Assembly (NCBI GenBank): GCA_964016885.1
Contig: OZ024742.1
Coordinates: 152,396,001-152,460,000 of the forward strand
DNA: 64,000 nucleotides
Source: Eledone cirrhosa
Lineage: Eukaryota
Direction of reading: 5' to 3'
Shown: piece after piece, positions 384 through 60,567 of the stretch
Position numbering within the stretch: position 1 is the stretch's first letter
Layout of the letters: every line of letters starts with the position of its first letter
Notes under the pieces: generated by a model
Database searches by the model: none
What the model saw: only the letters and a program-made list of their open reading frames with translations
What the model was told of the DNA's origin: nothing
Program-made: the position numbers and the translations under genes

Positions 384-387
<4 letters not shown>

Positions 388-960
388 GAGAGACGTAAAA
401 TAAGAAAATTATAAAAATTAACTTACTTACTAAAATTTCACTCCAACTAATTAGTTTCTGAAAGGGAATAAACGTAGTTACCGAAGAAGTGTACGGATAA
501 GCCTTTCGTCATCAGGGAAGTCTATTCTCAGCTAAGTTTCCAGGCAATACGTGGACACAGGGAACTTATACAAAAATAATTCAGTGGATGGAAAAAAGCA
601 AAGCGTGGACTAAGTTCCAAGCCATTGAAAAAATCACTGCCTACTGCGTCGGTGGCAAATTCAAAATAATCAATCACGTGACATCGAGGTCAATCAGTGA
701 AGAGTGGTTTGTTAAGAAGATAGCAGCCGGACTGTTACTATATAGTAGCAGTTTTGGCCAATTTTTGCTCGACACAATAATTTGGAGATAATTATAAAGA
801 ATTAGTACATCTACTGACATATATATACAGATGCATACCTATGCCAGCAAATATATAGGTTTTGTCTTAGTAACTTTGGGGTTCAATGCATGGAGATGCA
901 GAACAATAATATGAGAGACATAAAATAAGAAAATTATAAAAATTAACTTACTTACTAAAA
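384..960 (-). mobile_element. Family Y: non-coding ~525-bp HHR monomer (retrozyme-like), about 1.1 units
   Basis: taaaataagaaaattataaaa recurs at 396 and 921. Homologous to 17432-19050, 23700-24185 and 49924-50656. No RT ORF. Confidence 0.8.
440..522 (-). ncRNA. Hammerhead ribozyme (family Y)
   Basis: Reverse complement reads ttcc-CTGATGA-c-gaaagg...cctttc-a-GAAAC-TAATTA-GTT-ggag. Confidence 0.8.
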
Positions 961-961
961 T

Positions 962-1249
962 ATAGTGAAAGATTGAAGAGTAACATGGTCGGTGGTTGTG
1001 CAACAAGGCGCTTTATTTCGGGTATTAACAATTGTTTCATTTATCAGGTGAGTCTAAAGGCCGTTAATCGCTCGAAGTTGCGTCACTCGATCTCCAATAC
1101 ATTAGTTACCTCTGATCAAATCCTCAGAATCCTGAAATAAAGCCCCTTGTTGTACAGCCGACCATGTTACACTTCAATCTTTCACTATTATTCATCCAAG
1201 TATAACCTGCATAGGAATACTCGCGAACACGCTGCCTAACTATGGAAAC

Positions 1250-1250
<1 letters not shown>
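962..1250 (-). ncRNA. Family Z copy A: HHR enclosed in a ~60-bp inverted repeat, plus tail
   Basis: Arms at 962-1026 and 1128-1188. Minus-strand core CTGAGGA-tttgatcag...ctgataaat-GAAACAATTGTT (1027-1127). Homologous to 46887-47127. Confidence 0.75.

Positions 1251-1347
<97 letters not shown>
1250..1347. repeat. (TCTA)n microsatellite
   Basis: Direct reading. Confidence 0.98.
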
Positions 1348-2389: not shown

Positions 2390-2391
2390 AT

Positions 2392-2465
<74 letters not shown>
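2390..2465. repeat. (CA)n microsatellite
   Basis: Direct reading. Confidence 0.98.
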
Positions 2466-3047
2466 ACAAAATAAAAAACATATATATATATATATATTTA
2501 TATACATATATTTTGTTTTTATGTATGTATAGCGTCAATAAAATATGATAAGATATATAAGACGTTTAAAACAATGGTATAGAGGCATTGGCTGCTCTTA
2601 TTGAGAAGTGACGCCATTAGAGAACAAAAACCTATTTGAAGTGATGCTTCTTAACAATAGAGCAAATGGATATGTCCAATTATTTCCTAAGGTAATAGAA
2701 TTAAAATCTCTCAACAAATCATCGATTCATGCTTAAAACACAATATATAGTTAGCCAGTATTTCTTTCTTTGTATTTCTTCTGTCATCTTTCTGTCTATC
2801 ATTATGATTTCCTTAATTTTAGTTTTGGCTGTTAATACATATTGTCTCTAAAGAACATGTTTTATTGTATTTAAGATGCCATAAAACAACAGGGATAAAA
2901 AGTTGATGCACTCAGATCCTTATAAATTTTTGTATCAACTGTCGGTTGTATAACATACATTTGATGAATATATATATATATATATACATATATATAATGA
3001 TATACATATATATACATATATATATACATATATATATACACATACAC

Positions 3048-3185
<138 letters not shown>

Positions 3186-3186
3186 T

Positions 3187-3255
<69 letters not shown>

Positions 3256-3421
3256 ATATACATATATACATATATATATATGTATATATACATATTGTTG
3301 GTTTTCGCTTCTGTATCTTTTATATCAGTTACTTTATTCGGTCCTCAATGTTTACCATTGACTGACCAACGGTAAAAATTACAGATATAATATAGACACA
3401 AATACGTATATATAGTCGAAG

Positions 3422-3460
3422 AAAGTTCTTTCGTTGCACTTCTGCAACATCGTCAGTGGT
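3422..3460 (-). ncRNA. Minimal HHR-like motif
   Basis: Reverse complement reads CTGACGA-t-gttgca-gaag-tgcaac-GAAA-gaac-TT. Same GAAAGAACTTT end as 20179-20221, but helix I is poorly paired. Confidence 0.55.
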
Positions 3461-3507
3461 GCTATTATGTTCCTCCTGTTGTATTGTATATCTACGCCAT
3501 CTTTTGG

Positions 3508-3557
<50 letters not shown>

Positions 3558-3587
3558 TATATATAATTAAATAAATATTTAATTTTG

Positions 3588-3650
3588 TATTTTATCTGAT
3601 GAGAACGTGCCACACTTTTTGGTACCCTTGATATATATATAATATAATAA
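3588..3650 (+). ncRNA. Degenerate HHR relic
   Basis: tattttat-CTGATGA-gaacgtgcca...tggtaccctt-GATA-tatata-TA-atataata. GAAA is mutated to GATA. Confidence 0.35.
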
Positions 3651-3692
3651 ATATGGTTTTATAAATATAGTTTCCATTTATTAATATCACTG

Positions 3693-3727
<35 letters not shown>

Positions 3728-3788
3728 AACGCAAAAAATGAATCGAGATTTCATTTCTCACTCTTAGTACGGCTGTTACTTAAATATA

Positions 3789-3870
<82 letters not shown>

Positions 3871-3884
3871 ATATATATGTATAC

Positions 3885-3921
<37 letters not shown>

Positions 3922-3946
3922 GTATATATATATGTATATATATATG

Positions 3947-4013
<67 letters not shown>

Positions 4014-4042
4014 GTATATATATATATATGTATATATATATG

Positions 4043-5144
<1,102 letters not shown>

Positions 5145-5183
5145 ATATATATATATATAATGTATAATAAACAATACAATATA

Positions 5184-5259
5184 ATTACCTCATGACCAGA
5201 GGTTTCCCGAATAAGACGAATACGAAAAACGTCCTCATTCGTTCGTCGGACAAGGCAAT
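5184..5259 (-). ncRNA. Hammerhead ribozyme in the 3' pLTR of PLE #1
   Basis: Reverse complement reads ttgccttgt-CCGACGA-acgaatgaggacg...cgtcttattcgg-GAAAC-ctctg-GTC-atgaggtaa. 9-bp helix I with wobbles and a GUC cleavage site. Confidence 0.85.
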
Positions 5260-6510
5260 TTAAGACATAGTGAAATAATGGAAAAGTCTCCTCAAGAAAT
5301 GCAAGAGTTTAACGGGCAAAAATATATAAATAAAAGTAATGCAAGAGATATATAAAAAGATAAGGAAATATAATTAGGGTATGTCTATATGTATGTATAT
5401 ACACTCACAAATGTACATATGTGTGTATGTACAAATGCATGTCTATGGTGAAAATGTGTGCGTAAGTACATATATGAGGGCAAGTATATTGGTGTATATG
5501 TGACTACAAATACGTATATAATATGAGTTGAAAAAGAAATTGTATGATAACATAGTTAACACGCATCCAGATACAGGTATTAAATACACATACGAGTATG
5601 AAAGCACGCGTATAAACACACATACACGCGCGCGGACACTTATATGCGGAAGATAAAGAGGGAAGGGAATGTAATAGTAAAAAGAAGTGTCATTCTCGAT
5701 ATATGTATAAAAATGTAACAATATATGAGAATGAAAACATTTTTTAAATCAAAGAGAAAGTAATCAATTAACACTAGAGAAAAGAAAACAAACATAGGTA
5801 CGCACGTACACTCACATATATATATATAAAAATATTTATACACACAAATACGTACAGACAAAAGCGCATGCATGCGTACATACATACACATGAGGCACGT
5901 ATATATATATATATCGCCACATGTATATCTAATCAGACGTACGTACGCGGTTATATATATATATACATATATACATACACACCCATACATACATATACAT
6001 ATACACACATATACATACACATACACATACATTCACGCGAATGCACACACACGTATAAATAAGTATGCAAAAACCATACATATAAAAAAACATAGATATA
6101 AAAAGACACATACACACACATATATATACGTACGCACGTACACATGCGGAGGCGTTCATATACATATACAGAACGTATACACACATAAGCACACTCACAC
6201 ACAGAGATACAGATTATAAACCAGCCGTATGAATAAATGAGTACAAATATAATATCGGCTGCGAAACAACAGACTATATCTGGAGTGGAAAACGCAAGTG
6301 ACATGTTTTTTGAGGTAGTGAAATAAAATGGGGAAGTAAAATGTGAAATGTGAAGATATTGGGTAACTGAATCGAAAAGTAGGGGGGGGGGGTTACTGGT
6401 GGATGTGAAGTAAAAATGAAAATAAAATTAAAAATAAAGTTAAAAATGAAAGTAAATCAGAAAGAGAAGTCTGTAAAGAGGATAATTTAAGGAAAGTGAA
6501 GAATAAGAGT

Positions 6511-8085
6511 TTATGGAGGATAAGTATCTGAAAGTGAGTTAAGTTTATATGAGCTGGAAAGCAAGTGTGATTTCATGTGTGGGCAACTGGTGAACATTTC
6601 TGTTTTTATATTTAGGCAGGTTTTTGGTGATTTAAGGTTCTGTAAAATCCAATATTTTTCACTTATGCAGAGTGTGCATCTTCTTGTTCCTCTTGCATAT
6701 TCTTTAGATTGGTTCAAAATTGACCAATCCAATTTATATTGGATAACTTGGTCTTTCAAATCCCATATTCTGCTAGCCAGAGCTGTTGTGAATCTTTTGT
6801 CTGGATGTCGGAAAGATGCAACATGTGAGTAATAACGCGTTTTGAATTTGTCTTGTGTCATACCCACATATCGTTCGCTGGTGGCTAGTTGGTTGTTGCT
6901 GATGGTTGTCACTTTAGCCGTACATACAATGGCTTTGGTGTGCATTTACCTTGTAATGGGCATTCACTTTTGTCTCTACAGGAGCAATTTTGATGTTCTC
7001 TGGGTGATTTCTTATTGATGATATAAGATTTAATAGGGGGACCGCAGGAGTAGCAATTTTGACACAGTTACTATTGAAGATCTTATAGTATCTATGTGTT
7101 CTAGGGAAATGTTTATCTAAGAGCTCCAGGAATTTTTTGCCTACATTAGTTTTAACAGCTATAGAGTAGGGGGTGTGAACCAGATTATTTTTCTTTTCTA
7201 TTATTATGTTTAAAAGAGTTAGTATTCTTGGGTATGTACTTAATCGGTTCTCTAAATCCGCTATTTTGAAGGGCTTTATTATAGTAGGGGGATGCCTTAT
7301 TGAAAATAGCTTCTGAGGAAGAGAGGGTGGAGATCCTACGGCTAATATTAGGGATACAGTTTTTAAAAAACTATAGGAGGATGGCAAGAGCCTCTATGTA
7401 TATATTTTAAATTTTCATTAGGTTTATGGTATGGTTTATAAGAAGCAGTAGGCAGATCTAGGTTTATATCTAGAAAATTAACATTGGAAAGGTTAGTGTC
7501 AATAGTAATTTTAAGATTAAAACTAGCGAAGGTTTTTATTAAGTCTTTCCTTAATCTATCTAAGTTATGGCCTATGGTGGTATGGGAAAGTATTAGACCA
7601 TCCTCGCGATAAAGCCCAAAAATATGGTTTATGAATTTTTCTTTAAGTGTGTGTAGGAGGAATAGCCCGACTAAATCACAAACATCAGCACTGTCAAAAG
7701 AACCCATTAAGACATCGATTGGGTTCTCTGGGTTAGATATTTTTACCCAAGTGTCATTATCAGTAAAGAGTAGAGCGTTTCTAGCATGCAAGATGGCATT
7801 CTCTTCAATATCAGAAATATTGGTAAACTTTCTAGCGAAATTTAAGGCTTTCGCTAAAAGAGTCTGAGTGATAGACGGGTAGAAATCTACAATGTCAAAT
7901 TGGGTGAATCTAGAACTATTTTTATCTTTAATATTATTAAACCAATGTACTGCGGAAGAGCTATTTATCTATTGGAGTAATTCAGACTTACTTCTAATCT
8001 GTGTGTTTATATTATTTAACATTTTTTTGCTGGCAAGACCGATATCAGTCTTAGCAGGGTTGATTAATCTACAACTAGGACGATT
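6511..8085 (-). pseudogene. Frameshifted PLE RT + GIY-YIG endonuclease
   Basis: Motifs FDIVDFYPSI, MGSFDSADVCDLVG, LYREDGL, VNFLDINLDL, CSCRDKSECPLQGKC, YVGMTQDKFKTRYYSH and CTLCISEK. Confidence 0.92.
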
Positions 8086-8483
8086 AACATATATACGTGA
8101 TATAAGTGACCGCGTGTGTGTGTGTGTTTATACGCGTGCTTTCATACTCGTATGTGTATTTAATACCTGTATCTGGATGCGTGTTAACTATATTATCATA
8201 CAATTTCTTTTTCAACTCATATTATATACGTATTTGTGGTCACATATACACAAATATACTTGCCCTCATATATGTACTTACGCACACATTTTCACCATAC
8301 ACATGCATTTGTACATACACACATATGTACATTTGTGAGTGTATATACATACATATAGACATACCCTAACTATATTTCCTTATCTTTTTATATATCTCTT
8401 GCATTACTTTTACTTATATATATTTTGCCCGTTAAACTCTTGCATTTCTTGAGGAGACTTTTCAAATATTTCACTATGTTTTA

Positions 8484-8561
8484 AATTGCCTTGTCCGACG
8501 AACAAATGAGGACGTTTTTCGTATTCGTCTTATTAGGGAAACCTCTGGTAATTAGGTAATT
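8484..8561 (+). ncRNA. Hammerhead ribozyme in the inverted 5' pLTR of PLE #1
   Basis: Same motif as 5184-5259 but with a GUA site and a few mismatches. Confidence 0.8.
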
Positions 8562-8662
8562 AAATTGTATTGTTTATTATACATTAAATTTTGCTCTGGT
8601 ACTTACATAGAGCACTCTTCACTCCTATGACTTTTTCAATTTTCAGCGGAAACTTCAACACT

Positions 8663-8699
<37 letters not shown>

Positions 8700-8768: not shown

Positions 8769-8909
8769 CCGTTTCAACAGCTAGATCTAGCTGTTGAAAC
8801 GGCCAGAGCTCGGCCGAAGCTCAGCCGTCGGGGTCCTGAACGTTTTCGTATCACTACCCTATCGTGTACTCTGGTGAGCAATATTCTAACTGGTTTTTAC
8901 TACCTCCAT

Positions 8910-15248: not shown

Positions 15249-15756
15249 TGAGAAGAAAGAAGAATACTGCGTGGTTGCACATGGGTTACATATGATAAAA
15301 ATAGTCCTTCGTCAGTGATTTTCCAACCATCATTCGTATTTCATCGCATTAAGACTCAGATACCTCAGGTTGGTGCGAGCAATAACTAAAAAAAGTTATT
15401 GGGACCAGTAATTCGCGTAAAGCGAGGGGGACAAGTAAACAATATAGAAGGATAAAAGCAAACCGTAGATATGAAAATAAACAAGCAACATGCTTGTCCG
15501 GTCAGTACAAGCTGGGTGGATTTCATGAGCGAGAGAGGTACAGACCGTCCGATGTGTGTGAGATGTAAGCAAGAAGAGACCCACAACAAGCCAAACGGAA
15601 GGAAGTGAGAAGGGGAGAAACAGAGAGAGAATGAGTGGAAGTGTGAGGAAGAGGTCAGTTGAGAGAAAGTGAAACTGACAGAGGGGGCGAAAGAGGGTGA
15701 GAGAAACAGAGAGAGCGGGGAAGCAGTAAGATATATATATATATATATATATATAG

Positions 15757-15884
15757 AAATCACATGAATCAAAGTTCTTTTCAAACCATTTATTAGCTTA
15801 CAATTGTTTCGTCCAAACCGAGGTTTGGACGAAACAATTGTAAGCTAATAAATGGTTTGAACAGAACTTTGATTCATGTGATTT
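15757..15884. repeat. 63-bp-arm palindrome centred on an HHR helix II
   Basis: gtccaaacc-ga-ggtttggac-GAAACAATTGTA reads outward on both strands; one mismatch between arms. Confidence 0.9.
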
Positions 15885-16048
15885 ATATATAACTGCTCTG
15901 TAAAACAACTGATGTTATTACATTGAGCTATTTATCTTACTGGTAATAAGGTAGTAATAAATTACTGTCTTTCACTGTTTAGGGTTTAAAATATATATAT
16001 AACTATAAAAAGTTTTAGTATATACATAACCATAAATAGTATCCTTCA

Positions 16049-16628: not shown

Positions 16629-17344
16629 CAAAAGTACAGCAGATTCGAAGTTCGAATAGCAGCTAAGCCAACGAATTCCTTCAGCAGTGCAGCCAATCAC
16701 TCGACAACGTATAGAACTCAGAGTAATAACATACATTTTAATGGGCTTTGGAAATTGAAAATAGCGACCGCTAATTCAGCTGCGTGATCTGTAGCAACGA
16801 AAGAACTGACTAGTGAGAAAAAATATACACACACACACATACATAACCACACATATATGTATACATATATATACACCACAAGCGGATTTTGTTGATTTCG
16901 GATTTACAGAAACCTCACTTAGATAGTCAATAATTTCGAAGTGTCGGTCCAGGTATGTTATATATACAGATTATATAAAAAACATGCCTTATGTGTTTTC
17001 TTCATTTCACCCGCTTCGATGGAACAGATTGGTTATAAACAAAGTATTGGAGATCGATTGGCGCAAAATCAGGCGTATAGCGAACTCTAGACCTGCCAGA
17101 GCAAAGAAACAATTGTCAGCAATGTGATTAAAGCACTTATTGTATAGCGAACCATGTCAATCTTCTTTCTTGAATAATTATTACTCCAAGTGTAAACTAC
17201 ATAAAAATCACCGCGAATTCGCAGCATCACTATGGAAACGTCTTGTTGAGTCAAACTAAGTCACACGTTAATACTATCCACTACAAGAGCTACTCCAACT
17301 GGACTACATCTAAGCGAACTGCCATAACAATAACCTGTTATCTC

Positions 17345-17399
<55 letters not shown>

Positions 17400-17431
17400 T
17401 ATAGATATATATATACATATATATATATATA

Positions 17432-19046
17432 TGAAAAACGTAAAATAAGAAAATTATAAAAATTAACTTACTTACTAAAATTTCACTCCAACTAATTAGT
17501 TTCTGAAAGGGAATAAACATGGTTTCCGAATGGAACCCATGGAGAAAGCCTTTCGTCATCAGGAAATCTATTCTCAGCTAATTTTCCAGGCGATGCGTGG
17601 ACACGGGGAACGTATACAAAAATAATTCAGTGGATGGAAAAAAGCAAGCGGGGACTAAATTCAAGACATTGAAAAATCACTGCCTACTGCGTCGGTGGCA
17701 AATTGAAAAGAATCAATCACGTGACATCGAGGTTAATCAGTGAGTAGTGGGGTGTTACAAAAGACAGTAGTCGAACTATTACTATGAACTATAGTAGCAG
17801 TTTTGGAACATCTTTGCTCAACAAAATAATTTGGAGATAATTATAAAGAATATAGTATATCTACCAACATATATATACAGATGCATACCTATGCTAGCAA
17901 ATATATAGGTTTTGTCTTAGTAACTTTGTGGTTCAATGCAAGGGGATGCAGAACAATTTTATGGATGACGTAAAATAAGAAAATTATAAAAATCAACTTA
18001 CTTACTAAAATTTCACTCCAACTAATTAGTTTCTGAAAGGGAATAAACATGGTTTTCCGAATGGAACACATAGAGAAAGCCTTTCATCATCAGGAAGTCT
18101 ATTCTCAGCTAATTTCCCAGGCGTGGCGTGGACACAGGGAACATATACAAAAATAATTCAGTGGATGGAAAAAAGCAAGCGTGGACTAAATTCCAAGACA
18201 TTGAAAAAAGCACTGCCTACTTGGTCGGTGGCAAATTCAAAAGAATCAATCACGAGACATCGAGGTTAATCAGTGAGGAGTAGGGTGTTAAGAAGACAGT
18301 AGCCGAATTATTACTATGAACTATACTAGCAGTCTGGGGAAATTTGGAAAATGTTTGTATCAGTTCCCTGTTTAGTAAGTAAGTTCTTATTTTATGTCTT
18401 TCATATAATTGTTCTGCATCCCCTTGCATTGAACCACAAAGTTACTATGACAAAACCTATATATTTGCTAACATAGGTATGCATCTGTATATATATGTTG
18501 GTAGATATACTAATTCTTAATAATTATCTCCAAATTATTTTGTTAAGCAAAAATTGGCCAAAACTGCTACTATAGTTCATAGTAATAGTTCGGCTACTGT
18601 CTTTTTAACAGCCCACTCCTCACTGATTAACCTCGATGTCACGTGATTGATTCTTTTGAATTTGCCACCGACCAAGTAGGCAGTGCTTCTTTCAATGTCT
18701 TCGAATTTAGTCCACGCTTGCTTTTTTCCATCCACTGAATTATTTTTGTATAAGGTCCCTGTGTCCACGCATCGCCTGGGAAATTAGCTGAGAATAGACT
18801 TCCTGATGACGAAAGGCTTTCTCCATGGGTTCCATTCGGAAACCATGTTTATTCCCTTTCAGAAACTAATTAGTTGGAGTGAAATTTTAGTAAGTAAGTT
18901 ATTTTTTATAATTTTCTTATTTTACGTCTTTCATATAATTGTTCTGCATCCCCTTGCATTGAACCACAAAGTTTACTAACACAAAACCTATATATTTGCT
19001 AGCATAGGTATGCATCTGTATATATATTTTGGTAGAGATACTAATT

Positions 19047-19050
<4 letters not shown>
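17432..19050. mobile_element. Family Y array: ~1.7 units on minus (17432-18345) plus ~1.3 inverted units on plus (18372-19050)
   Basis: Period of 530 bp (17441 vs 17971). HHRs at 17485-17567 (-), 18015-18098 (-) and 18798-18880 (+). Confidence 0.88.
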
Positions 19051-19118: not shown

Positions 19119-19315
19119 ATAGGAACGAGTAGGACCCCGACGGCTGAGCTCAAGCCGTTTGGACGGCTAATTCTGGACGTCCAGAATTAACCGTCGAAAC
19201 GGCTCGAGCTCAGCCGTCTGGGTCCTACTCGTTCCTATTACCCACTCTAATACCCTAAGTATTGACTACTTTCGTGCGTTATGGTCAACCTGGTTCCTTA
19301 CCACATTTCCTTCGT

Positions 19316-19962: not shown

Positions 19963-22900
19963 CATTTCTGAATTTGTTTAGCAAGATTCTTTATCTGAAA
20001 TCGTGTGTTGAAACCGATATTGTTATACTTTGGGAGGGTCAAGTTGCCAATAAGAAACACTCGCACAAGTTGCTTTCACTTGAATTTATTATAATAAATT
20101 TATAAATTTAGGAATTTATAAATTTATAAATTTCGGGTTGGTTGTTTGGTTCCACAACCAGATAGTTGTTTATATATTGTCAAAGTTCTTTCGTCACACA
20201 TTCTGTGACCTCTTCAGTGACTGGGGATTCTTATCTTTGTTTTTGTGCCTCTCCTTTGTTCTGTCCTACGCCATTTTGTTTCTGTGTGTGTGTTGCGTGC
20301 TCAGTCTGCGCATGCGCAACATCCGGGTGTCTGTGAGTGTTTATATTCGTTTATTTATTTGTTTATTTACATGTTACCGGTTGGTTGTTTGTTCTATGTG
20401 TGTGTGTGTGTTTTCATTTTGTCCTTCATTGTAAGTTGTGATGTTGCTGTTCCACTCATATTTTCTATTTAATTTTGGTTGTAATTCTTTTACGTTTATT
20501 GCCTCTGTGATTTGTCTAAACATTGCGTCTTTTCTGTGTGTAGATTCTATTTTTATTTCTATGTTCTCTAATTTACCCTTATGTTCTATTTTAGCATGTT
20601 GGTAGAGTACAGATGATTCTTTAATATCTTGAAGCTCTCGCCAGTGTTCATTTATCCGTTCCCCTACACTACGAGCTGTCTCCCCTATGTACACTATATT
20701 TTTGTCTCTACATTGTCCTTCAGTAGATCTTATGCTATACACTACATTTCTAGTTTTACAGTTAATATGGGGGCTTAATTTAGAGGTTATACATTTCTTA
20801 TCTATACAGGGGGTTCTTTGAAAAGGGTATGTCTTGCTAATAAGTGTTTTACGGAGGTACCTGGTCTTTCTACTATCTTAATATTGAGTTTATGTTTATA
20901 TAGGGCCCTTCAAAATTTGTAAGCTAATTCACCTCTAGGGGTTGTATCGATGAACATTACACTCTGGTATTTATTACTATTATACCATGAGTTTATTCTA
21001 TTAGCCTTATTCCTAGTTCTTTCTATTCTATTCCAAAATTTGCTCCTATACAAGGGGCAGGTCCCATTTGTGTCATTATTTACCATTTTTCCCCATTTGG
21101 TTCTGGCTCCTCTATACACTCTGATTTTATCTCTCTGATTGTAACCAGAGAACTGCATACGGTGGATGAAGTGTTCTATGTGTCTCTCTAGTTCTTCGGG
21201 TTTGCACATGCGGGATACGTTTCTTATCAGCCGTACCAAATCCGCAATTAGTATGTTGATTTTGGTATGGTCCAAAACAGCCGAGTTTCGGTGGATCAGA
21301 TGTTTGGAAGTCATGGGTTTGGCATAATGGGAATGGAGGATTTGTTTGTTGTTATTAATGGTATCTAACCAGAGCTCTGTGTCTAGTACAGGTAATCGAT
21401 GGTTTGGGTGTTTTCTTGGGTAGTCTATAGTAACTCTAATACGCTGGTGGATTGAGTTAGCTATTTGCTGGATGCTTTCCATTGTGTTTTTCTCTAGTTC
21501 CTGACTGTTCTCTAGTGGGGGTGTCTTAACTACGATGTTTATATCATCAACGTAGCGGGAGTACATTATCAGGGTTAAGGGGTCTTCTAATTGTTCTTTA
21601 AGTTTAAGTTTAAGTCAACTGTCCCACCATACTATGAATAAGTTAGCTATGTCACCTGCAATGCTAACACAAATGGCTGCTCCTTCCTCTTGGGCATATG
21701 TTTTTCCATTAAATTTGAACATATGTTCCTTAAGGGTTAGTTTTATGCTGGCTCCTACCGCATGTGCAATCATTTTCTTCAGTTCATCGTTGTTTTCGGG
21801 TGTCCATGTGGCTCTGGTCCACCCGTTCCATCTATCTGTGTCGGGTTTCTTGGCCATTGAGGTAATGGTAGGTGGTCTGCCTCTTGCTGGTCTTGTAGGG
21901 CACAGGTTGCTAAGGTCATATGTCTCTAGGTAATTATTACTATAGATAAGTTTAAGTAAGAATCCCAGCTCACTGGTATCAATCCCACGGAACTCAACAT
22001 TGCTCTCACTGATCATTTCTACGCATTTCTCCACAGCAAAATCCACGTCAATACATGGATACAGGGACACAACATCCATACTACCTATTATGCAGTTTGT
22101 TAGGTCCCTAGATCGGTTATTCCGGCCGATTCTGCTGAGGAGGTCCTCCGTGCTGTCCCATACATCTGGGGACATTTCAATGATGGGGCGTATGATCAGG
22201 GAGAAGAAGTAGGACAGCCTCTAGTTACTAGCAATGTTAGCTCCACAGACTGGCCGTGTTGGTGGTCCCGTGTCAGGGTCACTGCCCGTTTTATGGTCTT
22301 TTCGAGGCCCATACAACGCCGGCACGTCATTGTTCCAGGCTTGGAAGTTGTTGGCAGTACTTTTATTGGGCTGCATTATATTCGTCCACATCACCATATG
22401 GGCATTGAGGGCTTTTTCTCTATCCTCATGCTGCTGTGGTGTTACCTCTCCTGTGTTAGTGATGTGGGGTTGCATTGCCTGGATGTAGTTTGGTAGGCTG
22501 TCAACCGACATTCTGCCAGACTTGTCTGTTGGAAAGCATGCTATCTCTCCATCACGCGAGCGCTGCATGAGCTTACGCAAGCCATTTGCAGATTTTTCTC
22601 CCAGTGGTTGGGCTTCCATTCTATTATGCTTCTTGCTATACTGTTCTATAACATTTCTAAGTTCGGATCTAGCTATACTAAATTGTGCGTCTGTTTGTTC
22701 ATCGACCTGCGACGGCAATTTCGTACGTTTGTTAATTGGTAAAGTCGTGGCGTGGACTCGTCGCAGGTCGAAGGACTTATCGGAGGGATTATAAAAAGTA
22801 GAGTTCCAGGCTGCTGCTTTATGTGTACTAGTGCTATTGTTATTGTTAGTTGTGTTGTTTCTATTTATATTTCCACCAACATCCTCATGGTTGTTTCTAT

Positions 22901-23650
22901 GTCTCACATAATTACTCATGTCTCTTTCCACTGGCTCATTGTTATTATCTACTCTATTGTGTATGTATGTGTGTTCGTCTTGGTTATTTTCTTTGTCCAT
23001 AGTCTCCCTTCTCCTTTTAATCCTATTACTTTCCCTTATTTCTGTGATTTCTGTGCTACTGTCATTACTTGTTTTCTGTGTCTGTGTGTTTGTTAAGATT
23101 GTGGTGGTGGTGAGAGGCATTGAATGTGTGTGTGTTGTTGTTGTTGTTGATGTGTGCTGTTGTTGATGTGTGCTGTTGTTGATGTGTGTTGTTGTTATTG
23201 TCTCCGTGATGTTATTATTGTTGTGTGTGTTGTTATTGTTGTTTGTGTCTGCGTGTCTGTTGTTGTTGTTTCTGAGTATTATATTATTGTTGGTGTGTGT
23301 GTTGTTGTTATTGTTGTTTGTGTCTGTGTGTCTGTTGTTGTTGGGATGTGTTGTATATGTGTGTGCGTATGTTGTTACTTTTGTTTTTGTTTTTGTTTTT
23401 GAGGCTCCAACGTAATTTTGTAAATGAATTTTTCTATTTCTGACAGACAACTAATCATATTTACCTTCTTGAATGTCGCAAATTTCGGTGGTAGAAGTAA
23501 TACAGATAATTCAACAGGGTCTATTGCCGTGTTGCCGTATATATTTGTGTTGTTGTTGTTGTTGAACTCATCTGTTAATGAGGTGTCGGCCATATTTATA
23601 CCGTCAATTTAGTCGGGATATCTATTGGTATTCTCTACAGTATCCTGATT
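19962..23650 (-). mobile_element. PLE #2, near full length, frameshifted
   Basis: Motifs PTDKSG, PPTRPVCGA, SMDVVSLYP, YSRYVDD, LPVLDTEL and VYIGETARSVGERINEH. Asn/Thr microsatellite expansion in the N-terminal part. Confidence 0.92.
20179..20221 (-). ncRNA. Minimal HHR in the 3' end of PLE #2
   Basis: Reverse complement reads gtca-CTGAAGA-g-gtcaca-gaatg-tgtgac-GAAA-gaac-TT-tgac. Confidence 0.75.
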
Positions 23651-24281: not shown

Positions 24282-24990
24282 AATATGAATATATATATGT
24301 ATATATATATATGTATATATATATATATGTATACATATATTTATATACACACATACATTATACATACATATATATATATATGAATATATATATATGTATA
24401 TATATAAGTATATATATATATGTATATATATATATATGTGTATATATATATATACACACACGCATACACACACACATCTATATTTATACACGCACACATG
24501 TTTTTACAACCTACCACCTTTCACACCCTTTGTTTTCCAGCTTCTACAGCTCACTATCTTTCACACACACACGCACTCACACATATACACACACAGTTAC
24601 ACACACATGTATACCCATACACTTACACACACACATCTATATTTATACACGCACACATGTTTTACAACCTACCACCTTTCACACCCTTTGATTTCCAGCT
24701 TCTACAGCCCACTATCTTTCACACACACACACACACATATACACACTTACATTTATACACACACAGTTACACACACATATATATTTATACACACATATTT
24801 TACGGCTTTCACACGCTAGCGCACCCTCTTGATTTAACCCATTTGGTCAGTAGCTTTTGCCACAGCTTATCACGCGCACGCGCATTCTTTCCCTCGTTTA
24901 AATTTTAAATAATTCTCTCCCCATAACGGCATTCCTGTCTTAACGACATCACAACTTTCTCCGCTTGGCCTGTTCCCCCCCTTTTGGAAC

Positions 24991-25028
24991 TTCCCCCGTT
25001 GATGGGCGTGAGCCCGAAATATTGGGAT
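24991..25028 (+). ncRNA. Variant HHR in PLE #3 5' pLTR (same motif at 28420-28457)
   Basis: tccc-CCGTTGA-t-gggc-gtga-gccc-GAAA-TA-TT-ggga. GNRA-capped helix II, non-canonical 5' core. Confidence 0.6.
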
Positions 25029-25192
25029 TAAATCTCCACTACGGTAACCCTTCTACCTTTGTTTTGTTTTCACCTTTGTCTCTCTCAATTTTCACTTTCA
25101 CCTGTTTCTCCTATCTATCATTCACTTCCTACCTCGAGATTTCCCTCTGCATTGTTGTGGCTTTCTTAACTACGTATTTTACACATTTCACA

Positions 25193-27839
25193 ATGCTTCA
25201 AGCAAACTTTAACACCCTCTTATCATTACACCTGAGCCAGGACTTGTTTGCACCCATAAGGGACCTATTCAGACTATCGGAGAATCGTGCCAAACTCGGT
25301 TGCCAAATTACCTTCTTAAAACGCTGCCTAAAGAACAACATCATTCCAACCACCATCAGGAATATACATCTACCCGAATGTTTACGATCACCATCCTTCG
25401 AAAACACCATCCGCCACATTCAACGCACGTTTATCAAGAAAATACTACGACACAACCACCACCAACTGCGACTCCATATACAAACGCTTTCCGAGCACAT
25501 AGATCGTATAGCTCCAACCCTCACCCCTGACCACCAGGTGCAGGAAATACGCAAAGCTATAGATCAGTGTTACCACACCAGAGTCAAATATGATAAACAG
25601 CGCCTTATACGGAAATACGAATGGACTGTAAACAAATACTACAATGACAACATCCGCTCCCACAGACTGACCGATTACAACCACACCAGGGGCAACAGCT
25701 ATACAACACCCTCCGCTACACCCCCCAACATCGATCTACCTACCAACGATGCTTCACACCTCGTTACCGACCTAACCGGTACCCTCACCAACGACGAACT
25801 CGAACTTCTGCGCCTCGGACCCAAGTTCATCATTACACAGCGTCTCGATGATAGACTGAAACTCGACATCGAAACCAACTTCTGTCGGACAGCATATCAA
25901 CTGAAATGGCTAACCGCCATCCAAAACAACACCGAGATCGATTACAACCCCACAATCCACCCCACACTCCCCACGTATCACCTCGACAACCCACTCCACC
26001 CCCCACCCACCAACCACGAACTTGATACTAAACTACTCAGGTTGAAACATTCTATCTCTAACATCCTTTCCCAACACACACACACACAATAAACGCAACC
26101 TCACCAATGCACAATTTAATACTCTCACCAACCTAAGATCCAGGAACCTTGTGTACCTTCCCTCTGACAAGGGGAAAGAATTCTGTGTCATCTCGAGAGA
26201 GACCTACAACAACTTAGCTCTCCAACATCTTAATGACCACAGCCTCTACTCGAAAGTCACAGGGACCTCCTCGACTCTAATCGAGGAAGGCATTAACACC
26301 ATATGGACTAACATCTGTGTCCAACGAAAACTGCCAAAGAAGGTAAAAAAACCAAAAAAAATCCAACATAATGACTCGAAACAGCAAACTACCCACCTTC
26401 TACCACCTGGTTAAAACACATAAACAAGGACCCGATTTGAAAATCAGGCCCATTGTCTCTAGCGTGGAGGGCCCACTCTACAAAATATCGTGGCTGCTCT
26501 CCACACTACTGAAACCCATTCCACACACACTACCAGCCCACGTCTGCAGCTCAAAGGAGGTCTTGGAGCGACTACACCATCTGGAGCCCAACACCAGAAA
26601 GGACAACGGTTATGCCTTCAGTCTTGATGTGGTCGCCCTTTATACCTCCGTACCAGCATCCCCAGCTGTCGACCTGTTGACCGAACGAGTCCGAGCATCT
26701 AACTTACACTGCTTCGGACTCACACACACGGACATCCACCAACTCCTCTCCTTCGTTGTGGATAATGCACTCTTCAATTTCCTCGGCCACACGTATAAAC
26801 AAATCTCTGGGCTACCTATGGGCTCTAGTCTGTCCGGCATACTTGCGATCTCGTACATGGACCACCTGGAACGCAAGGCACTCAATACCTGCCAACCCAA
26901 CGCCGTCGCCTTCTACTCCAGATACGTTGATGACATCCTGATACTTCTTCCCGTGAGATGGCGAATGAAATTCACCAAATCTTCAACGATACTGACCATC
27001 ACGTCGATTTCACCATCGAACACCCAGGAGAAGACGGGTCACTCGCCCTCCTCGACTTCCGTATCAACATCTCAGAAGAAGGAGACATAAACACCACCTT
27101 CTACCGCAAAGCAGCGTGCAAGGACTTATTTGTGCATTACAACTCAGCCCTCCCCAACAACGCTAAGAGAGGCTATGTCCTAAATGAACTGACACGGATC
27201 ACTAACAGATGCAGCGACCCGATGGGTGGTCTCACCCATACCACGCAATTCCGTAATCTACTCAGATCTAATGGTTATCCCAAGCGACTGATTATCGGAA
27301 TTAGAGACCCCAGACCCAATAGACACCCACCCACTAGAAACTTAAATAAAAGCAGGTGCTTCTTTAAAATCCCCCACCTGAGTGAATATACCACGAACGC
27401 CATCCGCAGGGCCATACGGACGGAGGGACTTGACATACATTTGGCCCACACAGGACCTTCGCTGCGAAGATGCCTCTCCAACAAACCCGACCAGTCAGAT
27501 GGGACGTGTTCCCTCAGCAACTGCCCGATACGGGGGGCAGATTGCCTACGCACCTATGTCGTATATAAGATTCAATGCGATAAATGTAACAAGTTTTACA
27601 TAGGTAGCACCATCCGACCCCTACATGTTCGTATCAAGGAACATATCAACACCAACGCATCTTCCTTCCGTAAAAACATCCTTAAATGCGGAAACCCACA
27701 GCGTAGACCCTTGGTCACAGTCCTAGCGACTGAACGCAGCATCGGATCCTTAAGGATAAAGGAAGCACTTGTTATTAAGAACCTCAGACCCCCACTTAAC
27801 AACCGGGCTGAGAGAAATGAGCTGACATGGCTAACTTAA
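25193..27839 (+). pseudogene. PLE #3 ORF (RT + GIY-YIG) with about three frameshifts
   Basis: MLQANF start; motifs PSDKG, LVKTHK..IRPIVS, SLDVVALYTSVP, GLPMGSSLS, YSRYVDD, VVYKIQCDKCNKFYIGST and EALVIKNLRPPLN. Confidence 0.95.
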
Positions 27840-28896: not shown

Positions 28897-29085
28897 TAAC
28901 GAAGGAGTTGTGGTAAGGAACCAGATGGACCATAAGGCACCAGAGTACTCAATACTTAGGGTAGTAGAGTGGGTAACTGGTAAATGTATGACCCCGATGG
29001 CAGAGCTCAAGCCGTTTCGACGGCTATTTCTGAGTCCAGAAATAGCCGTCGAAACGGCTTCAGCTTTGCCTTCGGGGTCATACAT
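28897..29085 (-). mobile_element. Family X fold-back element (~50-bp arms plus tail)
   Basis: Hairpin atgtatgacccc...gccgtttcgacggctatttctg / cagaaatagccgtcgaaacggc...ggggtcatacat. Tail homologous to 19237-19318. Confidence 0.8.
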
Positions 29086-29206
29086 ATATATACATATACA
29101 TTTTCCAAATGTATATGTATATATATATATGTATATATATATACGATAATAAGGGCGCTGCGGAGTTGCAAATGGGTTACATATGAAAAAAGTTTGTCCA
29201 TCATCA

Positions 29207-32138: not shown

Positions 32139-34665
32139 GAGGAACTGAAACAATAACCATAGAGGAACTGAAGCAACGCATTGTAGCAAAGAGTGCAAAA
32201 ATCAGGCGATACGAGAACAGAGTCAGTCAGTATACACAGAACCGCATGTTCGACAACAACCAGAAGATGCTGTTTGGACAGCTTGAGGGGAAAGAAAGAG
32301 GCAACGACTTGATCCCTGATGCGGAACAAACTAAAACATTCTGGAGAGGAATATGGGAGCAGGATGTTAAACATAATGACCAGGCAGTGTGGATTGAGAC
32401 AGTACAAAAGGAGATTAGTGAACAGGCACACCAAAAAACTGATTAGAGTATCACAGTTGAAACTCTTAAGGGGCAGGCCAAAAAACTAACCAACTGGAAA
32501 TCACCAGGCCCAGATGGTGTGCAGGGGTATTGGATTAAAATATAACATCCCTCCACCCGAAACTGACAACCATGTTCAATGTCTGCTTGATGTCAGGTGA
32601 GGTACCAGAGTGGTTGACAAAAGGTACCACAGTTCTGGTAATGAAAGACCGAATCAAGAGTAATGATGTTACCAACTATAGACCTATCACATGTCTGTCC
32701 GTAATGTGGAAACTGCTGAGAAGCATTATGTCTGAGGAAATCTACCATCACCTCCACACAAACAACTTGTTACCGGACGAACAGAAAGGATGCCGAAAGA
32801 AGTCACGTGGTACAAAGAACCAGTTACTTATTGATAAGATGGTAATGAGGAATTGCAAAGAGGAGACACACTGGTCTTGCCATGGGATGGATAGACTACA
32901 AAAAGGCATTCGACATGTTACCTCATTCTTGGATAACCAAAAGCCTGGAGATCTTCAAGGTGGCAGATAACATCAGACATTTGTTGGGCAAAAGTATGAA
33001 GTCCTGGGAAACAGAGTTAACATCAACTGGAGAATCCTTGGGAAGCGTGAAGATCAAGAGAGGTATCTTCCGGGGAGATAGTCTGTCCTCTCTGTTGTTT
33101 GTCCTTGCCCTGATGCCCCTGACCAGTGTACTGCGAAAAGTGAGAGCAGGATATAGGTTGGGAAAGGGAGGGCTTACCATCAATCACCTCCTCTTCACGG
33201 ACGATCTTAAGCTATTCGGGAAGAGTGAGAAGGAGTTGGATGTGCTTGTTGACACTGTCCGTATTTTCACCAATGATATATGTATGCAATTTGGTATTAG
33301 TAAGTGTGGAGTCATTGAGATGAAGAGGGGTAAGTTGAGCAGAAGTAACGGAATCCAGGTACCAACGGGTGAGATGATAAAGGAAATTGACTCTGAAGAA
33401 GGATACAAGTATTTGGGCGTTCTGGAGGCTGATGACATCAAGAACAAAACAATGAAGGAATTGATAAGAACTGAATACATTCGGAGAGTAAGGAGCGTAT
33501 TAAAGTCACATCTGAACAGTAGGAATGCCATAAGTGCAGTAAATTCCCGAGCTGTGTCTATTATGAGTTACAGTGCGGGAATTCTGAGATGGAATGTTGC
33601 TGAACAGATAGAAATGGATAGGATGACTAGTAAGCTATTGACTATCTACAACATGTTCCACAAGAGGAGTGATGTCGATAGACTCTACTTAAGGAGATCT
33701 GATGGTGGAAGAGGTTTTATCAGCATAGAGGACTGTGTTCAGATGGAGAAAAACAACCTACACAAATACGTGACTGATAGTAAGGAGCCAATGCTCAGAA
33801 CTGTGCTGAAGGAGAGGACAATAGGCCAGGGGATGTCCAAGGAGGAAATAACATCAAGGAGAAAGAGCAGCTTTCAGGAAAAATCCCTTCATATTACCTT
33901 CTTTGAGAAAACTGAATTTAGAGTTCCACAGACATGGAACTGGTTGAAAAGAGGAGACCTTAAAAAGGCTACAGAAGGAATGTTAATGGCTGCGCAGGAG
34001 CAGGCCATCAAAACGAAGTTGTTGAAACACCATATCTACAAGGAGGAGGCTAGCCCACTGTGCAGGATCTGTGGAGAGAGAGAGGAGATTGTGGCTCACA
34101 TTGTATCCGAGTGTAAACACCTAGCCCAGACTCACTATAAGGGCTGGAGACATGATGTGATGGGCAGGGTGATCCACTGGCACCTATGCAAAGTAAACAA
34201 TTTACCACATTCTGAGAAGTGGTATGAGCATAAGCCAGAGTCGGTGATAGAAAACGATGAGGTGAAGGTGCTGTGGGATTTTAGGATACAGACGGACAAG
34301 AAACTGGAATACAATAGACCTGACCTGGTGGTTTTGGACAAGGGAAAAAGATCAAGAGAAGAGAGGGAGAAAATTAACCGTTACCAGGACTTAAAGTGGG
34401 AGGTAAAAAGGATTTGGAACTGCCATGAGGTCAAAGTTGCGCCTATTGTCATAGGCGCATTAGGTACTATCACAAAGAGTTTCAAGGGATGGTTAAAAAA
34501 AATTGCTCCTGCCCCGCTTTTTAGAACACTTTAAAATGCATGCTTGCTGGGAACAGCAAGAACCCTCCGATACGTCCTGAATATCTGAGGCTGCAGGTAG
34601 TGGCTTGATATTCATTTCAACAAACTTTCCAGTTAAATAACACCAATGACTGAGACTCAAAGAAC
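32139..34665 (+). mobile_element. R4/Dong-like non-LTR retrotransposon, family A, 5'-truncated, in (TAA)n
   Basis: KSPGPDG, NYRPITCL, WIDYKKAFD, HLLFTDDLKLF, CRICGEREE..HIVSEC zinc knuckle, RHD and REL RPDLVV. TAA repeats on both sides. Confidence 0.93.
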
Positions 34666-34696
<31 letters not shown>

Positions 34697-39173: not shown

Positions 39174-41653
39174 TGTTCGACAACAACCCAGAACCGCATG
39201 TTCGACAACAACCAGAAGATGCTATTTGGACAGCTTGAGGGGAAAGAAAGAGGCAACAACTTGATCCATGGGGCGGAACAAACTAAAACATTCTGGAGAG
39301 GAATATGGGAGCAGGATGTTAGACATAATGACCAGGCAGTGTGGATTGAGACAGTACAGAAGGAGATCGGTGAACAGGCACACCAACAAACTGATTTGAG
39401 TATCACAGTTGAAACTCTTAAGGGGCAGGCCAAAAAACTAACCAACTGGAAATCACCAGGCCCAGATGGTGTGCAGGGGTATTGGATTAAAAATATAACA
39501 TCCCTCCACCCGAAACTGACAGCCATGTTCAATGACTGCTTGATGTCAGGTGAGGTACCAGAGTGGTTGACAAAAGGTACCACAGTTCTGATAATGAAAG
39601 ACCGAATCAAGGGTAATGATGTTACCAACTATAGACCTATCACATCTGTCCGTAATGTGGAAACTGTTGACGAGCATTGTGTCTGAGGAAATCTACCATC
39701 ACCACCACACAAACAACTTGTTACCGAACGAACAGAAAGGATGCCGAAAGAAGTCACGTGGTACAAAGGACCAGTTACTTATTGATAAGATAGTAATGGG
39801 GAATTGCAAGAGGAGACACACTGATCTTGCCATGGGATGGATAGACTACTGAAAGGCATTTGACATGGTGCCTCATTCTTGGATCACCAAAAGCCTGGAG
39901 ATCTTCAAGGTGGCAGATAACATCAGACGGTTGTTGGGCAAAAGTATGAGGTCCTGGGAAACAGAGTTGACATCAACTGGAGAATCCTTGGGAAGCGTGA
40001 AGATCAAGAGAGGTATCTTCCAGGGAGATAGCCTGTCCCCTCTGTTGTTTGTCCTTGCCCTGATGCCCCTGACAAGTGTACTGCGAAAAGTGAGAGCAGG
40101 ATACAGGTTGGGAAAGGGAGAGCTTACCATCAATCACCTCCTCTTCATGGACGATCTTAAGCTATTCGGGAAGAGTGAGAAGGAGTTGGATGTGCTTGTT
40201 GACACTGTCCGTATTTTCACCAATGATATATGTATGCAATTTGGTATTAGTAAGTGTGGAGTCATTGAGATGAAGAGGGGTAAGTTGAGCAGAAGTAACG
40301 GGATCCAGGTACCAACGGGTGAGATGATAAAGGAAATTGACTCTGAAGAAGGATACAAGTATTTGGGCGTTCTGGAGGCTGATGACATCAAGAACAAAAC
40401 AATGAAGGAATTGATAAGAACTGAATACATTCGGAGAGTAAGGAGCGTATTAAAGTCACATCTGAACAGCAGAAATGCCATAAGCGCAGTAAATTCCCGA
40501 GCTGTGTCTATTATTAGGTGCAGTGCGGGAATTCTGAGATGGAATGTTGCTGAACAAAAAGAAATGGATAGGATGACTAGTAAGCTATTGACTATCTACA
40601 ACATGTTCCACAAGAGGAGTGATGTCGATAGACTCTACTTAAGGAGATCTGAGGGTGGAAGAGGTCTTATCAGCATAGAGGACTGTGTTCAGATGTACAA
40701 AAACAACCTACACAAATACGTGACTGATAGTAAGGAGCCAATGCTCAGAACTGTAATGAAGGATGGACAATAGGCCAGGGGATGTCCAAGGAGGAAATAA
40801 CATCAAGGAGAAAGAGCAGCCTTCAGGAAAAATCCCTTCATAGTACCTTCTTTGAGAAAACTGAACTTAGAGATCCACAGACATGGAGCTGGTTGAGAAG
40901 AGGAGACCTAAAAAAGCTACAGAAGGAATGTTAATGTCTGCGCAGGAGAAGGCCCTCAAAACGAAGTGGTTGAAACACCATATTTACAAGGAGGAGGCTA
41001 GCCCACTGTGCAGGATCTGTGGAGAGAGGAGACTGTGGCTTACATTGTATCCGAGTGTAAACACCTAGCCCAGACCCACTATAAGGGCTGGAGACATGAT
41101 GTGATGGGTAGGGTGATCCACTGGCACCTGTGCAAAGTAAACAATTTACCACATTCTGAGAAATGGTATGAACATAAGCCAGAGGCGGTGATAGAGAACG
41201 ATCAGGTGAAGGTGCTGTGGGATTATAGGATACAGACGGACAAGAAACTGGAAAACAATAGACCTGACCTGGTGGTTGTGGACAAAGAAAAAAGATCGTG
41301 CCTGATTGTGGATGTGGCCTGCCCATTCGACACGAGAGTGCAAGAGAAGGAGAGGGAGAAAATTAACCGATACCATGACTTAAAGTGGGAGGTAAAAAGG
41401 ATTTGGAACTGCCATGAAGTCAAAGTGATCCCGATTGTCATAGGCGCACTGGGGACTATCTCCAAAAGTTTCCAGGGATGGTTAAAGAAAATCGGCCCTT
41501 TCACGCTTTTTGGAACGCTTCAAAAGGCATTCTTGCTGGGAACAGCAAGAACCCTCCGATACGTCCTGAATATCTGAGGCTGCAGGTGGTGGCTTGATAT
41601 TCATTCCAACGGACTTTCCAGTTAACTATCATCAATGACTGAGACTCAAGGAG
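39174..41653 (+). mobile_element. R4/Dong-like family A copy 2, 5'-truncated, with stops and frameshifts
   Basis: GIFQGDSLSP, HLLFMDDLK, RPDLVV and IVDVACPFD; same 3'UTR as 34590-34665. Confidence 0.93.
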
Positions 41654-41680
41654 TAATAACAATAATAGTAATAATAATAA

Positions 41681-41827
41681 TTCTTTATACTTTTGGCACA
41701 AGGCCAGCAATTGCCCAGTGTATTACTGGTACTTTATGTTATCGACCCCATAAGGATGAAAGGCAAAGTTAACCTCGGCTGGATTTGAACTCAGAATGGC
41801 AAGGGCCGTAACTCTATGCGTCAAAGC

Positions 41828-46835: not shown

Positions 46836-46886
<51 letters not shown>

Positions 46887-47127
46887 AAAAAGTGGAGAAT
46901 AACATGGTCAACAGTACAAAAAAGGGAACTGTTTCCGATGATCTAGTATAGTTAACATCGTATTTAAAATTGAGTGGCACTGTTTTTAGTGTTCAGCAAT
47001 TTTTAGACAACTCTATCAGTGAAACAATTGTTAGACTGCAAATTAAACCCCCTTTTTTGTACAATTAACCACATTATTTTCCACTTTTTCAATTTTATTA
47101 CTCCAAGATAAATTTACATAGGAATAC
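46887..47127 (+). ncRNA. Family Z copy B: HHR inside an inverted repeat, plus tail
   Basis: gttt-CCGATGA (46935)...GAAACAATTGTT (47021)-agac. Arms aaaagtggagaataacatggtc / accacattattttccactttt; tail cataggaatac. Confidence 0.7.
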
Positions 47128-47167
47128 AAGTGAAATCATAAACTCGTCATCCAAAGGGGAAGCAACA

Positions 47168-49868: not shown

Positions 49869-49921
<53 letters not shown>

Positions 49922-49923
49922 TA

Positions 49924-50650
49924 ATTAGTATATCTACCAACATATATATACAGATGTATACCTATGCAAGCATATATATAGGTTTTGTCTTAGTAACTGT
50001 GTGGTTCAATGCAAGGGGATGCAGAACAATTATATGAAAAACGTAAAATAAGAAAATTCTAGTAATTAGCTTACTTACTTAAATTTCACTCCAACTAATT
50101 AGTTTCTGAAAGGGAGTATACATGGAGATCATGCAGAAACCTTTTCGTCATCAGGGAGTCATTCTCAGCTAAGATACCTGGCGATGCGTGGACACAGGGA
50201 ATTTATAAAAAAATATTCAGTGAACTAAATTCCAAGATACTGAAAAAATCACTGCCTTCTTGTTCGGTGGCGAATTCAAAAGAATCAATGACGTGACATC
50301 GAGGGAAATCAGTGAGGAGTGAGGAGTGGGGTGTTAAAAAGACAGTAGCCAAGCTGTTACTATGAACTATAGTAGTAATTTTGGCAAATTTTTGCTCAAC
50401 AAAATAATTTGGAGATAATTATAAGAAGGCAGTGATTTTTTCAGTATCTTTGAATTTAGTCCCCGCTGGATCTTTTCCACCCACTGAATATTTTTGTATA
50501 AGTTCCCTGTGTCCACGCATCGCCAGGTATCTTAGCTGATGACGAAAAGGTTTTTCCATGATCTCCATGTATATTCCCTTTCAGAAACTAATTAGTTGGA
50601 GTGAAATTTAAGTAAGTAAGCTAATTACTATAATTTTCTTATTTTACATT

Positions 50651-50656
<6 letters not shown>
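49924..50656. mobile_element. Family Y: minus copy 49924-50425 plus inverted plus copy 50426-50656
   Basis: HHRs at 50088-50159 (-, helix I actcc/ggagt) and 50536-50602 (+, 5' strand of helix I deleted). Confidence 0.88.

Positions 50657-50739
<83 letters not shown>

Positions 50740-60534: not shown

Positions 60535-60566
<32 letters not shown>

Positions 60567-60567
<1 letters not shown>

Follow-up and report, generated by a model that had tools for sequence, protein, structure and literature searches.

Opposite core polarities in a short hammerhead repeat family, a likely footprint of Penelope-like insertion

Penelope-like elements are described as having an inverted, 5'-truncated copy adjoining their 5' end, and a tail of 30–40 bases that can be present at either end (PMC8557442). 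The tail is reported to be optional on one of the inverted pLTRs, where head-to-head junctions are the most frequent (PMC3846280). For a purified Penelope-like protein, a predicted dimer, both cutting and extension of the two target strands are reported, with two internal start sites spaced by the length of the tail; ribozyme cleavage was dispensable in vitro for this protein (PMC11167929). The hammerheads of these elements have a palindromic helix III that is short and a helix I limited to 2–5 bp (PMC4209133), and the elements of the Hydra clade carry hammerheads and insert in (TA)n (PMC8557442). A search of the openly accessible literature found no published account of the polarity of the hammerhead core relative to the tail.

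The window analyzed here, which is the whole stretch of 64,000 nucleotides (64 kb), is repeat-rich animal-type DNA containing (TA)n microsatellites, broken reverse-transcriptase ORFs and several families of short hammerhead repeats. One of these repeats is called family Z in this report, with copy 1 at 962–1253 and copy 2 at 46881–47127, and the family Z sequence 3' of the predicted cleavage site is called B. As far as the cited sources describe the insertion units of Penelope-like elements, family Z resembles them in the head-to-head inverted copy, the one-sided extension at either end, the (TA)n or AT-rich flanks and the hammerhead in the repeated end. It differs from them in that its units are only 250–290 bases long with one core between the arms, the extension of copy 1 is 64 bases long, and the family is known without a proven ORF. 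The inverted insertion pattern of Penelope-like elements is known, and family Z, as it stands, is one more example of it; a small residue consists of the helix II of about 80 bases and the joins at ribozyme helices. The features of the three copies, and of the repeat adjoining copy 1, are as follows.

384–961, minus strand: family X hammerhead repeat, comprising one unit and a 5'-cut piece; its head lies directly against the short end of copy 1
962–1026, minus strand: copy 1 left arm, B, with its short end about 65 bases after the predicted cleavage site
1027–1127, minus strand: copy 1 core, predicted type I hammerhead (CUGAGGA ... GAAAC, palindromic 4-base loop III, GUU)
1128–1189, plus strand: copy 1 right arm, a second, inverted B, whose first base is the first after the predicted cleavage site
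1190–1253, plus strand: copy 1 tail, in which B continues up to an (ATCT)n microsatellite
17016–17347, plus strand: copy 3, in which a decayed core is followed by B and by 230 bases of 3' extension up to (TA)n
46881–46934, minus strand: copy 2 left arm, an inverted, 5'-cut B next to (TA)n
46935–47032, plus strand: copy 2 hammerhead core, with U4 changed to C and a helix II region of 79 bases
47033–47127, plus strand: copy 2 B and about 30 bases of tail past the short-end position

An earlier note on this DNA had described copies 1 and 2 as sharing arms and tails in one orientation while their cores lie on opposite strands, and this flipped pair is real. The significance of the core alignments was evaluated with 1000 dinucleotide shuffles. 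The core of copy 1 on the minus strand (1027–1127) aligns with that of copy 2 on the plus strand (46936–47032) at a score of 53, where the shuffle mean is 19.6 and 0/1000 shuffles reach the score; the same-strand control, with both cores read on the plus strand, scores 20, which corresponds to chance (540/1000). When the shared hammerhead motifs were removed, the score was 27 (6/1000), which indicates that the homology of the two cores is real but weak. The core of copy 3 (17018–17117), a copy left unused in the earlier two-copy comparison, bridges them with scores of 56 against copy 1 (0/1000) and 24 against copy 2 (27/1000), and is closer to copy 1 than the copy 2 core is. The tails lie on one common strand in all three copies (0/1000 shuffles for copies 1 and 2, 0/1000 for copies 1 and 3, and 2/1000 for copies 2 and 3), and the 10-base word of the left arm is present on the plus strand at both 981 and 46900. 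The alignments show that both cores and tails are homologous, on which the earlier note had made its reading depend; the limits that it gave needed correction, since copy 1 ends at 1253 and copy 2 starts near 46881.

At each of these two loci, a pair of outward-pointing B copies with unequal outer ends encloses one core. The inverted repeats are 962–1022/1131–1188 in copy 1 (86.9% identity) and 46878–46926/47050–47098 in copy 2 (83.7%), with fold z-scores of −7.7 and −5.8, respectively. Profiles made from the three copies detect only 3 cores, 5 arms and 3 tails within the 64-kb window. The right arm of copy 1 is joined directly to C3 of the core. The 5' arm of copy 2 begins 7–16 bases into B, and the inner 6–8 bases of this left arm may be the natural short strand of helix I. 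Copy 3 has the polarity of copy 2, since its core, B and tail share the plus strand.

The tail extends beyond the short-end position by 30 bases in copy 2 and by 64 bases in copy 1, the extension of copy 3 being longer; it is one-sided in copies 1 and 2, as compared with a published tail of 30–40 bases. The outer ends of the short arms of copies 1 and 2 fall on alignment columns 168 and 169, that is, both arms end within 1 column, which may point to one preferred 3' end about 63–65 bases after the cleavage site. The long outer ends differ among the three copies. A (TA)n or (ATCT)n run is present at one end of each copy, and no target-site duplication is readable at the family Z copies.

Two further observations concern these borders and tails. 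At 961/962, the short end of copy 1 meets a 5'-cut copy of family X at the head of the latter; this X copy has no inverted partner of its own, and the expected onward X sequence has a 6-base word in common with the end of copy 1 in inverted orientation. The join could have come either from nested insertion or from a jump between templates of two RNA families. The differences among the tails (1190–1253, 47098–47137 and 17179–17256) fall partly on third codon positions of one frame, as if the tails were formerly coding. The 36-residue tail peptide of copy 3 has 0 matches among 1.84 billion proteins and does not match the N-termini of 27 related Penelope-like proteins, and the idea that the tail is the start of an ORF was left as unsupported because this peptide has no protein match.

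The long arms that flank the cores, which would form a 60-bp 'helix I', were written in the direction of B and compared. Within copy 1 the arms agree in 50/54 columns and within copy 2 in 41/54 columns, as compared with 34–36/54 columns between loci. Among the informative columns, 10 group the arms by locus, 0 by left or right position and 1 by 5' or 3' role. In copy 3, an inverted 5' arm is not significant in either the alignment (405/2000 shuffles) or the duplex energy (141/1000). Because the arms group by locus and the 5' arm of copy 3 is not significant, the 5' arm of each locus is best explained as an additional B that was made there in inverted orientation. The 60-bp 'helix I' is not a fixed feature of family Z. 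The mismatches of the hairpins on the ribozyme strand comprise 2 G-U, 10 A-C and 8 others, and these numbers give no sign that the arms are kept up as an RNA helix. An excess of A-C over G-U is seen in 962–1189 and 46881–47097 (10 to 2, p 0.04); it is weak, and it becomes 7 to 1 (p 0.07) when the inner part of copy 2, which is poorly aligned, is left out. A-C on the ribozyme strand corresponds to G-U on the antisense strand.

The earlier note had offered two explanations for the flipped cores, the first of which was a recombinational inversion between the helix I arms that would switch self-cleavage on and off. Such recurrent inversion, acting on the self-cleavage of read-through RNA, would accord with the intact core of copy 1 lying between long inverted repeats and with the presence of both polarities in the family. 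However, fixed and conserved inverted repeats bounding the flipped segment in every copy, by which an invertible switch would be recognized, are not found. The arms are specific to their loci, are 76–93% alike with gaps, and decay like neutral DNA; the cores of copies 2 and 3 are broken; no recombinase site or gene was seen, and the loci sit among other repeats. Junctions of the same polarity as copy 1 also arise without such an arm, as described below. This explanation is not supported, and a switch of this kind is hardly credible. A natural invertible hammerhead was not found in the literature, judged by titles and the starts of abstracts, and it is extremely doubtful that the core of hairpin insertions keeps inverting, with both a cutting and a non-cutting orientation of the same locus. 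A real invertible ribozyme would be striking if true; the evidence points away from it.

By its core letters, copy 1 is a predicted type I hammerhead, in which all the conserved letters are kept (C3–A9, G12–A15.1, U16.1 and H17). U4 is the decayed position in copy 2, and the core of copy 3 is decayed. In copy 1, helix III consists of 2 bp with a palindromic loop, the cleavage-site triplet is GUU, and the helix II region of 82 bases closes with 4–5 pairs above a U-U base pair. The helix II region of the family as a whole measures 79–83 bases (within 1027–1127, 46935–47032 and 17016–17117) and contains a conserved inner hairpin, for which 15 pairs are predicted, 3 of them with two-sided changes among only 3 sequences. 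As described in PMC4209133, the minimal type I hammerheads of Penelope-like elements are similar to family Z in the short palindromic helix III, the core boxes and the short natural helix I; they differ in having a helix II stem of 7–8 bp rather than a region of 79–83 bases with an inner hairpin, and a G-C pair at its base where family Z has U-U or G-U.

The search with Rfam gave 0 matches at the gathering score over the window and 0 matches at E up to 10 over 900–1260. Long helix II regions are also present in families X (41–53 bases) and N (36 bases), and like that of family Z they go undetected by Rfam. For a 21-base core pattern, the search of metagenome contigs yielded 1 match, which was judged to be chance because the motif alone matches and the flanks are unrelated, and the search of viral contigs yielded 0 matches.

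The abundance and joints of family Z were compared in public sequencing runs of the same organism, consisting of three contig sets of one sample (X1–X3) and one reduced-representation read set (X4). The run records were aligned to 800–1256 at 80% likeness, and family Z was abundant, with 2391–4404 records per run over this stretch, which includes part of family X. The 3' end of the core is found directly before position 1133 in 12, 14 and 11 contigs, which indicates that the collinear order of core, B and tail is the usual one. Among 12 distinct joints, 5 have this collinear polarity of copy 2 and 4 have the polarity of copy 1; the remaining 3 (1092>1128, 1137>1173 and 1188>1048) are ambiguous and were counted for neither.

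In the four joints of copy 1 polarity (1071>1201, 1090>1146, 1119>1223 and 1126>1209), a minus-strand core leads into plus-strand B or tail. Each is a single contig of one sample, and the short sides, 24–29 bases where given, are flagged as unreliable. Two of the breakpoints lie at the 5' end of the core and two within helix II, and three of the joints resume about 50–96 bases into B or the tail, one of them with 24 filler bases. Joints that resume so far downstream leave no long arm available, so they cannot have come from inversion between two long arms.

These joints bear on a neutral variant of the inversion, in which copy 1 was inserted in the polarity of copy 2 and a template switch or break repair later inverted its 101-base core once, while the 60-base arms on either side were still identical. 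The human–chimpanzee microinversions reported in PMC8755829 are all flanked by inverted repeats, the sequence of a single locus cannot separate direct insertion from inversion, and the polarity of copy 2 is the commoner one (2/3 of the family Z copies of the window, and more of the contigs). On the other hand, the microinversions described in that source are 17–33 bases long, the accident requires an extra event, junctions of copy 1 polarity are seen where long arms are lacking, and both polarities are present in family X, the arms of which are unequal in length. A later inversion of this kind is improbable.

Among the 24 pieces listed out of 7671, 6 reach the 5' end of the core, and all 6 stop at 1129–1130 with 17–77 unaligned bases beyond; three of them are probably one contig in three sets. 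The family contigs end 2–3 bases upstream of the core. In X1, the summed depth drops from 24,791 at 1105 and 44,558 at 1170 to 231 and 146 at positions 1131 and 1133, respectively, and a part of this fall may be due to a 1-base gap of copy 1 itself; the depth also dips at 992–1007, the site of an insertion private to copy 1. In X4, the match to the reference breaks off at 1119 in 256 reads, which then run into TA-rich sequence some 10 bases upstream of where the core starts. None of the listed pieces, whether contig or read, spans copy 1, and the best runs contain 0.21 of its words, as would be the case if copy 1 were a fold-back artefact of the assembly or library. Such an artefact would not give the 7 mismatches and 2 gaps that separate the arms of copy 1, and the right arm and tail match other copies of family Z, which makes an artefact very unlikely.

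The second explanation of the earlier note, in which helix I joins the two halves of a tail-out double insertion, is consistent with the evidence and agrees with the published pattern of Penelope-like insertion. Copies 1 and 2 are each likely the product of a single insertion event, and the opposite core polarity is likely an ordinary footprint of such insertion and not an on/off switch of a ribozyme. In the proposed mechanism, an endonuclease would nick both strands of an AT-rich or (TA)n target, and reverse transcription would be primed from each nick, beginning at either of two start sites inside the element RNA. One cDNA would pass through the core while the other stops short of it, and the 3' ends of the cDNAs would then anneal via the natural short helix I, whose strands offer a few complementary bases, followed by fill-in. 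If the cDNA from the far start site passes through the core, the usual polarity of copy 2 would result; if the cDNA from the near start site does so, that of copy 1 would result. No flip would be needed after the insertion, and the long hairpin would be a by-product.

That two cDNAs from opposite target strands were joined head to head by the short helix I has somewhat better than an even chance of being right. We infer the joining through helix I from the positions of the junctions only, and a fold-back route would yield the same product. In the latter, one cDNA folds back through helix I, or the antisense RNA primes itself, to give a symmetric hairpin DNA with two tails, either end of which is trimmed by the endonuclease at integration. 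Self-priming of a palindrome at inverted junctions is proposed in PMC3846280, and PMC8557442 attributes the tail to endonuclease resolution of an intermediate. The joins sit at ribozyme helices, namely helix I in copies 1 and 2 and helix II in families V and H, and the closest relative of each arm is the other arm of its own locus, as the fold-back would also predict. Against it stand the need for a symmetric join, from whose symmetric point the three far-resuming contig junctions are distant (one with the filler bases mentioned above), the arms of family X, which are cut at very different places, and the priming from both target strands reported in vitro in PMC11167929. The fold-back is on balance unlikely, while an insertion product without a later flip, made by either the two-cDNA or the fold-back route, is highly probable.

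The joint between the two cDNAs leads to a tentative suggestion, namely that the ribozyme's own helices are the place where the cDNAs anneal, which would give the hammerheads of Penelope-like elements a role in integration; we consider this possible, with the chances somewhat against it. The positions of the junctions, at C3 and at the base that directly follows the cleavage site, yield a prediction that is testable in vitro. The bearing of these results on how Penelope-like elements make their inverted ends, and on what their ribozyme is for, is modest. They also call for caution where long 'helix I' stems are predicted for hammerheads in genomic DNA, since such stems can be by-products of insertion.

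Head-to-head products of the same type are found in other hammerhead families of the window, including two insertions of family X.

17428–19049: family X head-to-head insertion, with a 110-base extension on the shorter arm
49917–50659: family X head-to-head insertion, in which the longer arm carries the extension

In family X, the short ends abut (TA)n, the arms are of unequal length, and both polarities occur within the window. Head-to-head joins are also present in 3 further families, namely V, H and the repeats around 6511–7968. Family V has three hairpins joined in helix II, two of which carry a homologous one-sided extension. These controls from family X, family V and 6511–7968 indicate that a one-sided extension on either arm is the local rule. 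At 15750–15891, a near-perfect hairpin has its join in the loop of helix II; it is one of four near-perfect hairpins (with 8769–8802, 19119–19238 and 28981–29088) that consist of two hammerhead 3' halves joined in helix II and are without the first core box.

Pieces of Penelope-like ORFs lie close to these repeats, one of them directly behind copy 2.

47128–48083, plus strand: Penelope-like ORF piece, 5'-cut and broken, adjoining copy 2
5155–8667, minus strand: Penelope-like ORF remnant at 6511–7968 between inverted hammerhead repeats (5155–5645 and 8100–8589)

The piece at 47128–48083 contains the end of the thumb, a CxC-type linker and a GIY-YIG-like endonuclease with CxxC and CxH motifs. 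It matches relatives of the 6511–7968 remnant with E values down to 5e-17, and resembles GIY-YIG clusters by features (0.96). A word-indexed protein search with the endonuclease piece gave 0/81 candidates, and Pfam names neither this piece nor 4 full-length relatives. A profile search of the window found no second family Z end behind it. Inside its linker motif, a 62-base hairpin (an inverted duplication) is present at 47618–47679.

For the remnant, the part at 7366–7968 has 27 relatives at 42–61% identity. The inverted repeat flanking 6511–7968 extends 79 more bases before (TA)n, and this stretch, present as a single copy only, is read as a tail. The relatives of the ORF pieces have RWK, CxC-X5-C, CxxC and CxH motifs, which are marks of the Hydra clade, and by these motifs the neighboring ORF pieces fit that clade; a Neptune-like label was dropped for Hydra-like after the motif comparison. 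Family Z would be mobilized by a Penelope-like enzyme, probably of the Hydra clade, where the link of family Z to the ORFs is the adjacency at copy 2 only, and the hammerhead repeat of the ORF remnant at 6511–7968 is different from family Z. Elsewhere in the window, broken Penelope-like ORFs with C-terminal GIY-YIG domains are present at 20374–23450 and 24944–27839 (Pfam 20377–20877 and 26934–27836), and another reverse-transcriptase element is represented by several 2.5-kb copies, at 32158–34694, 39186–41681 and 60537–63070.

Non-LTR retrozymes, as portrayed in PMC7229834 and bioRxiv 10.64898/2026.07.22.740005, are likewise short, non-coding type I hammerhead repeats that are related to Penelope-like pseudo-LTRs. 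Family Z differs from them in being present as 3 dispersed cores, with no tandem array in the window. A compact pair of other hammerhead repeats, which are 99% identical and have (TA)n between them, lies at 24–145 and 225–345 and resembles a retrozyme-like tandem.
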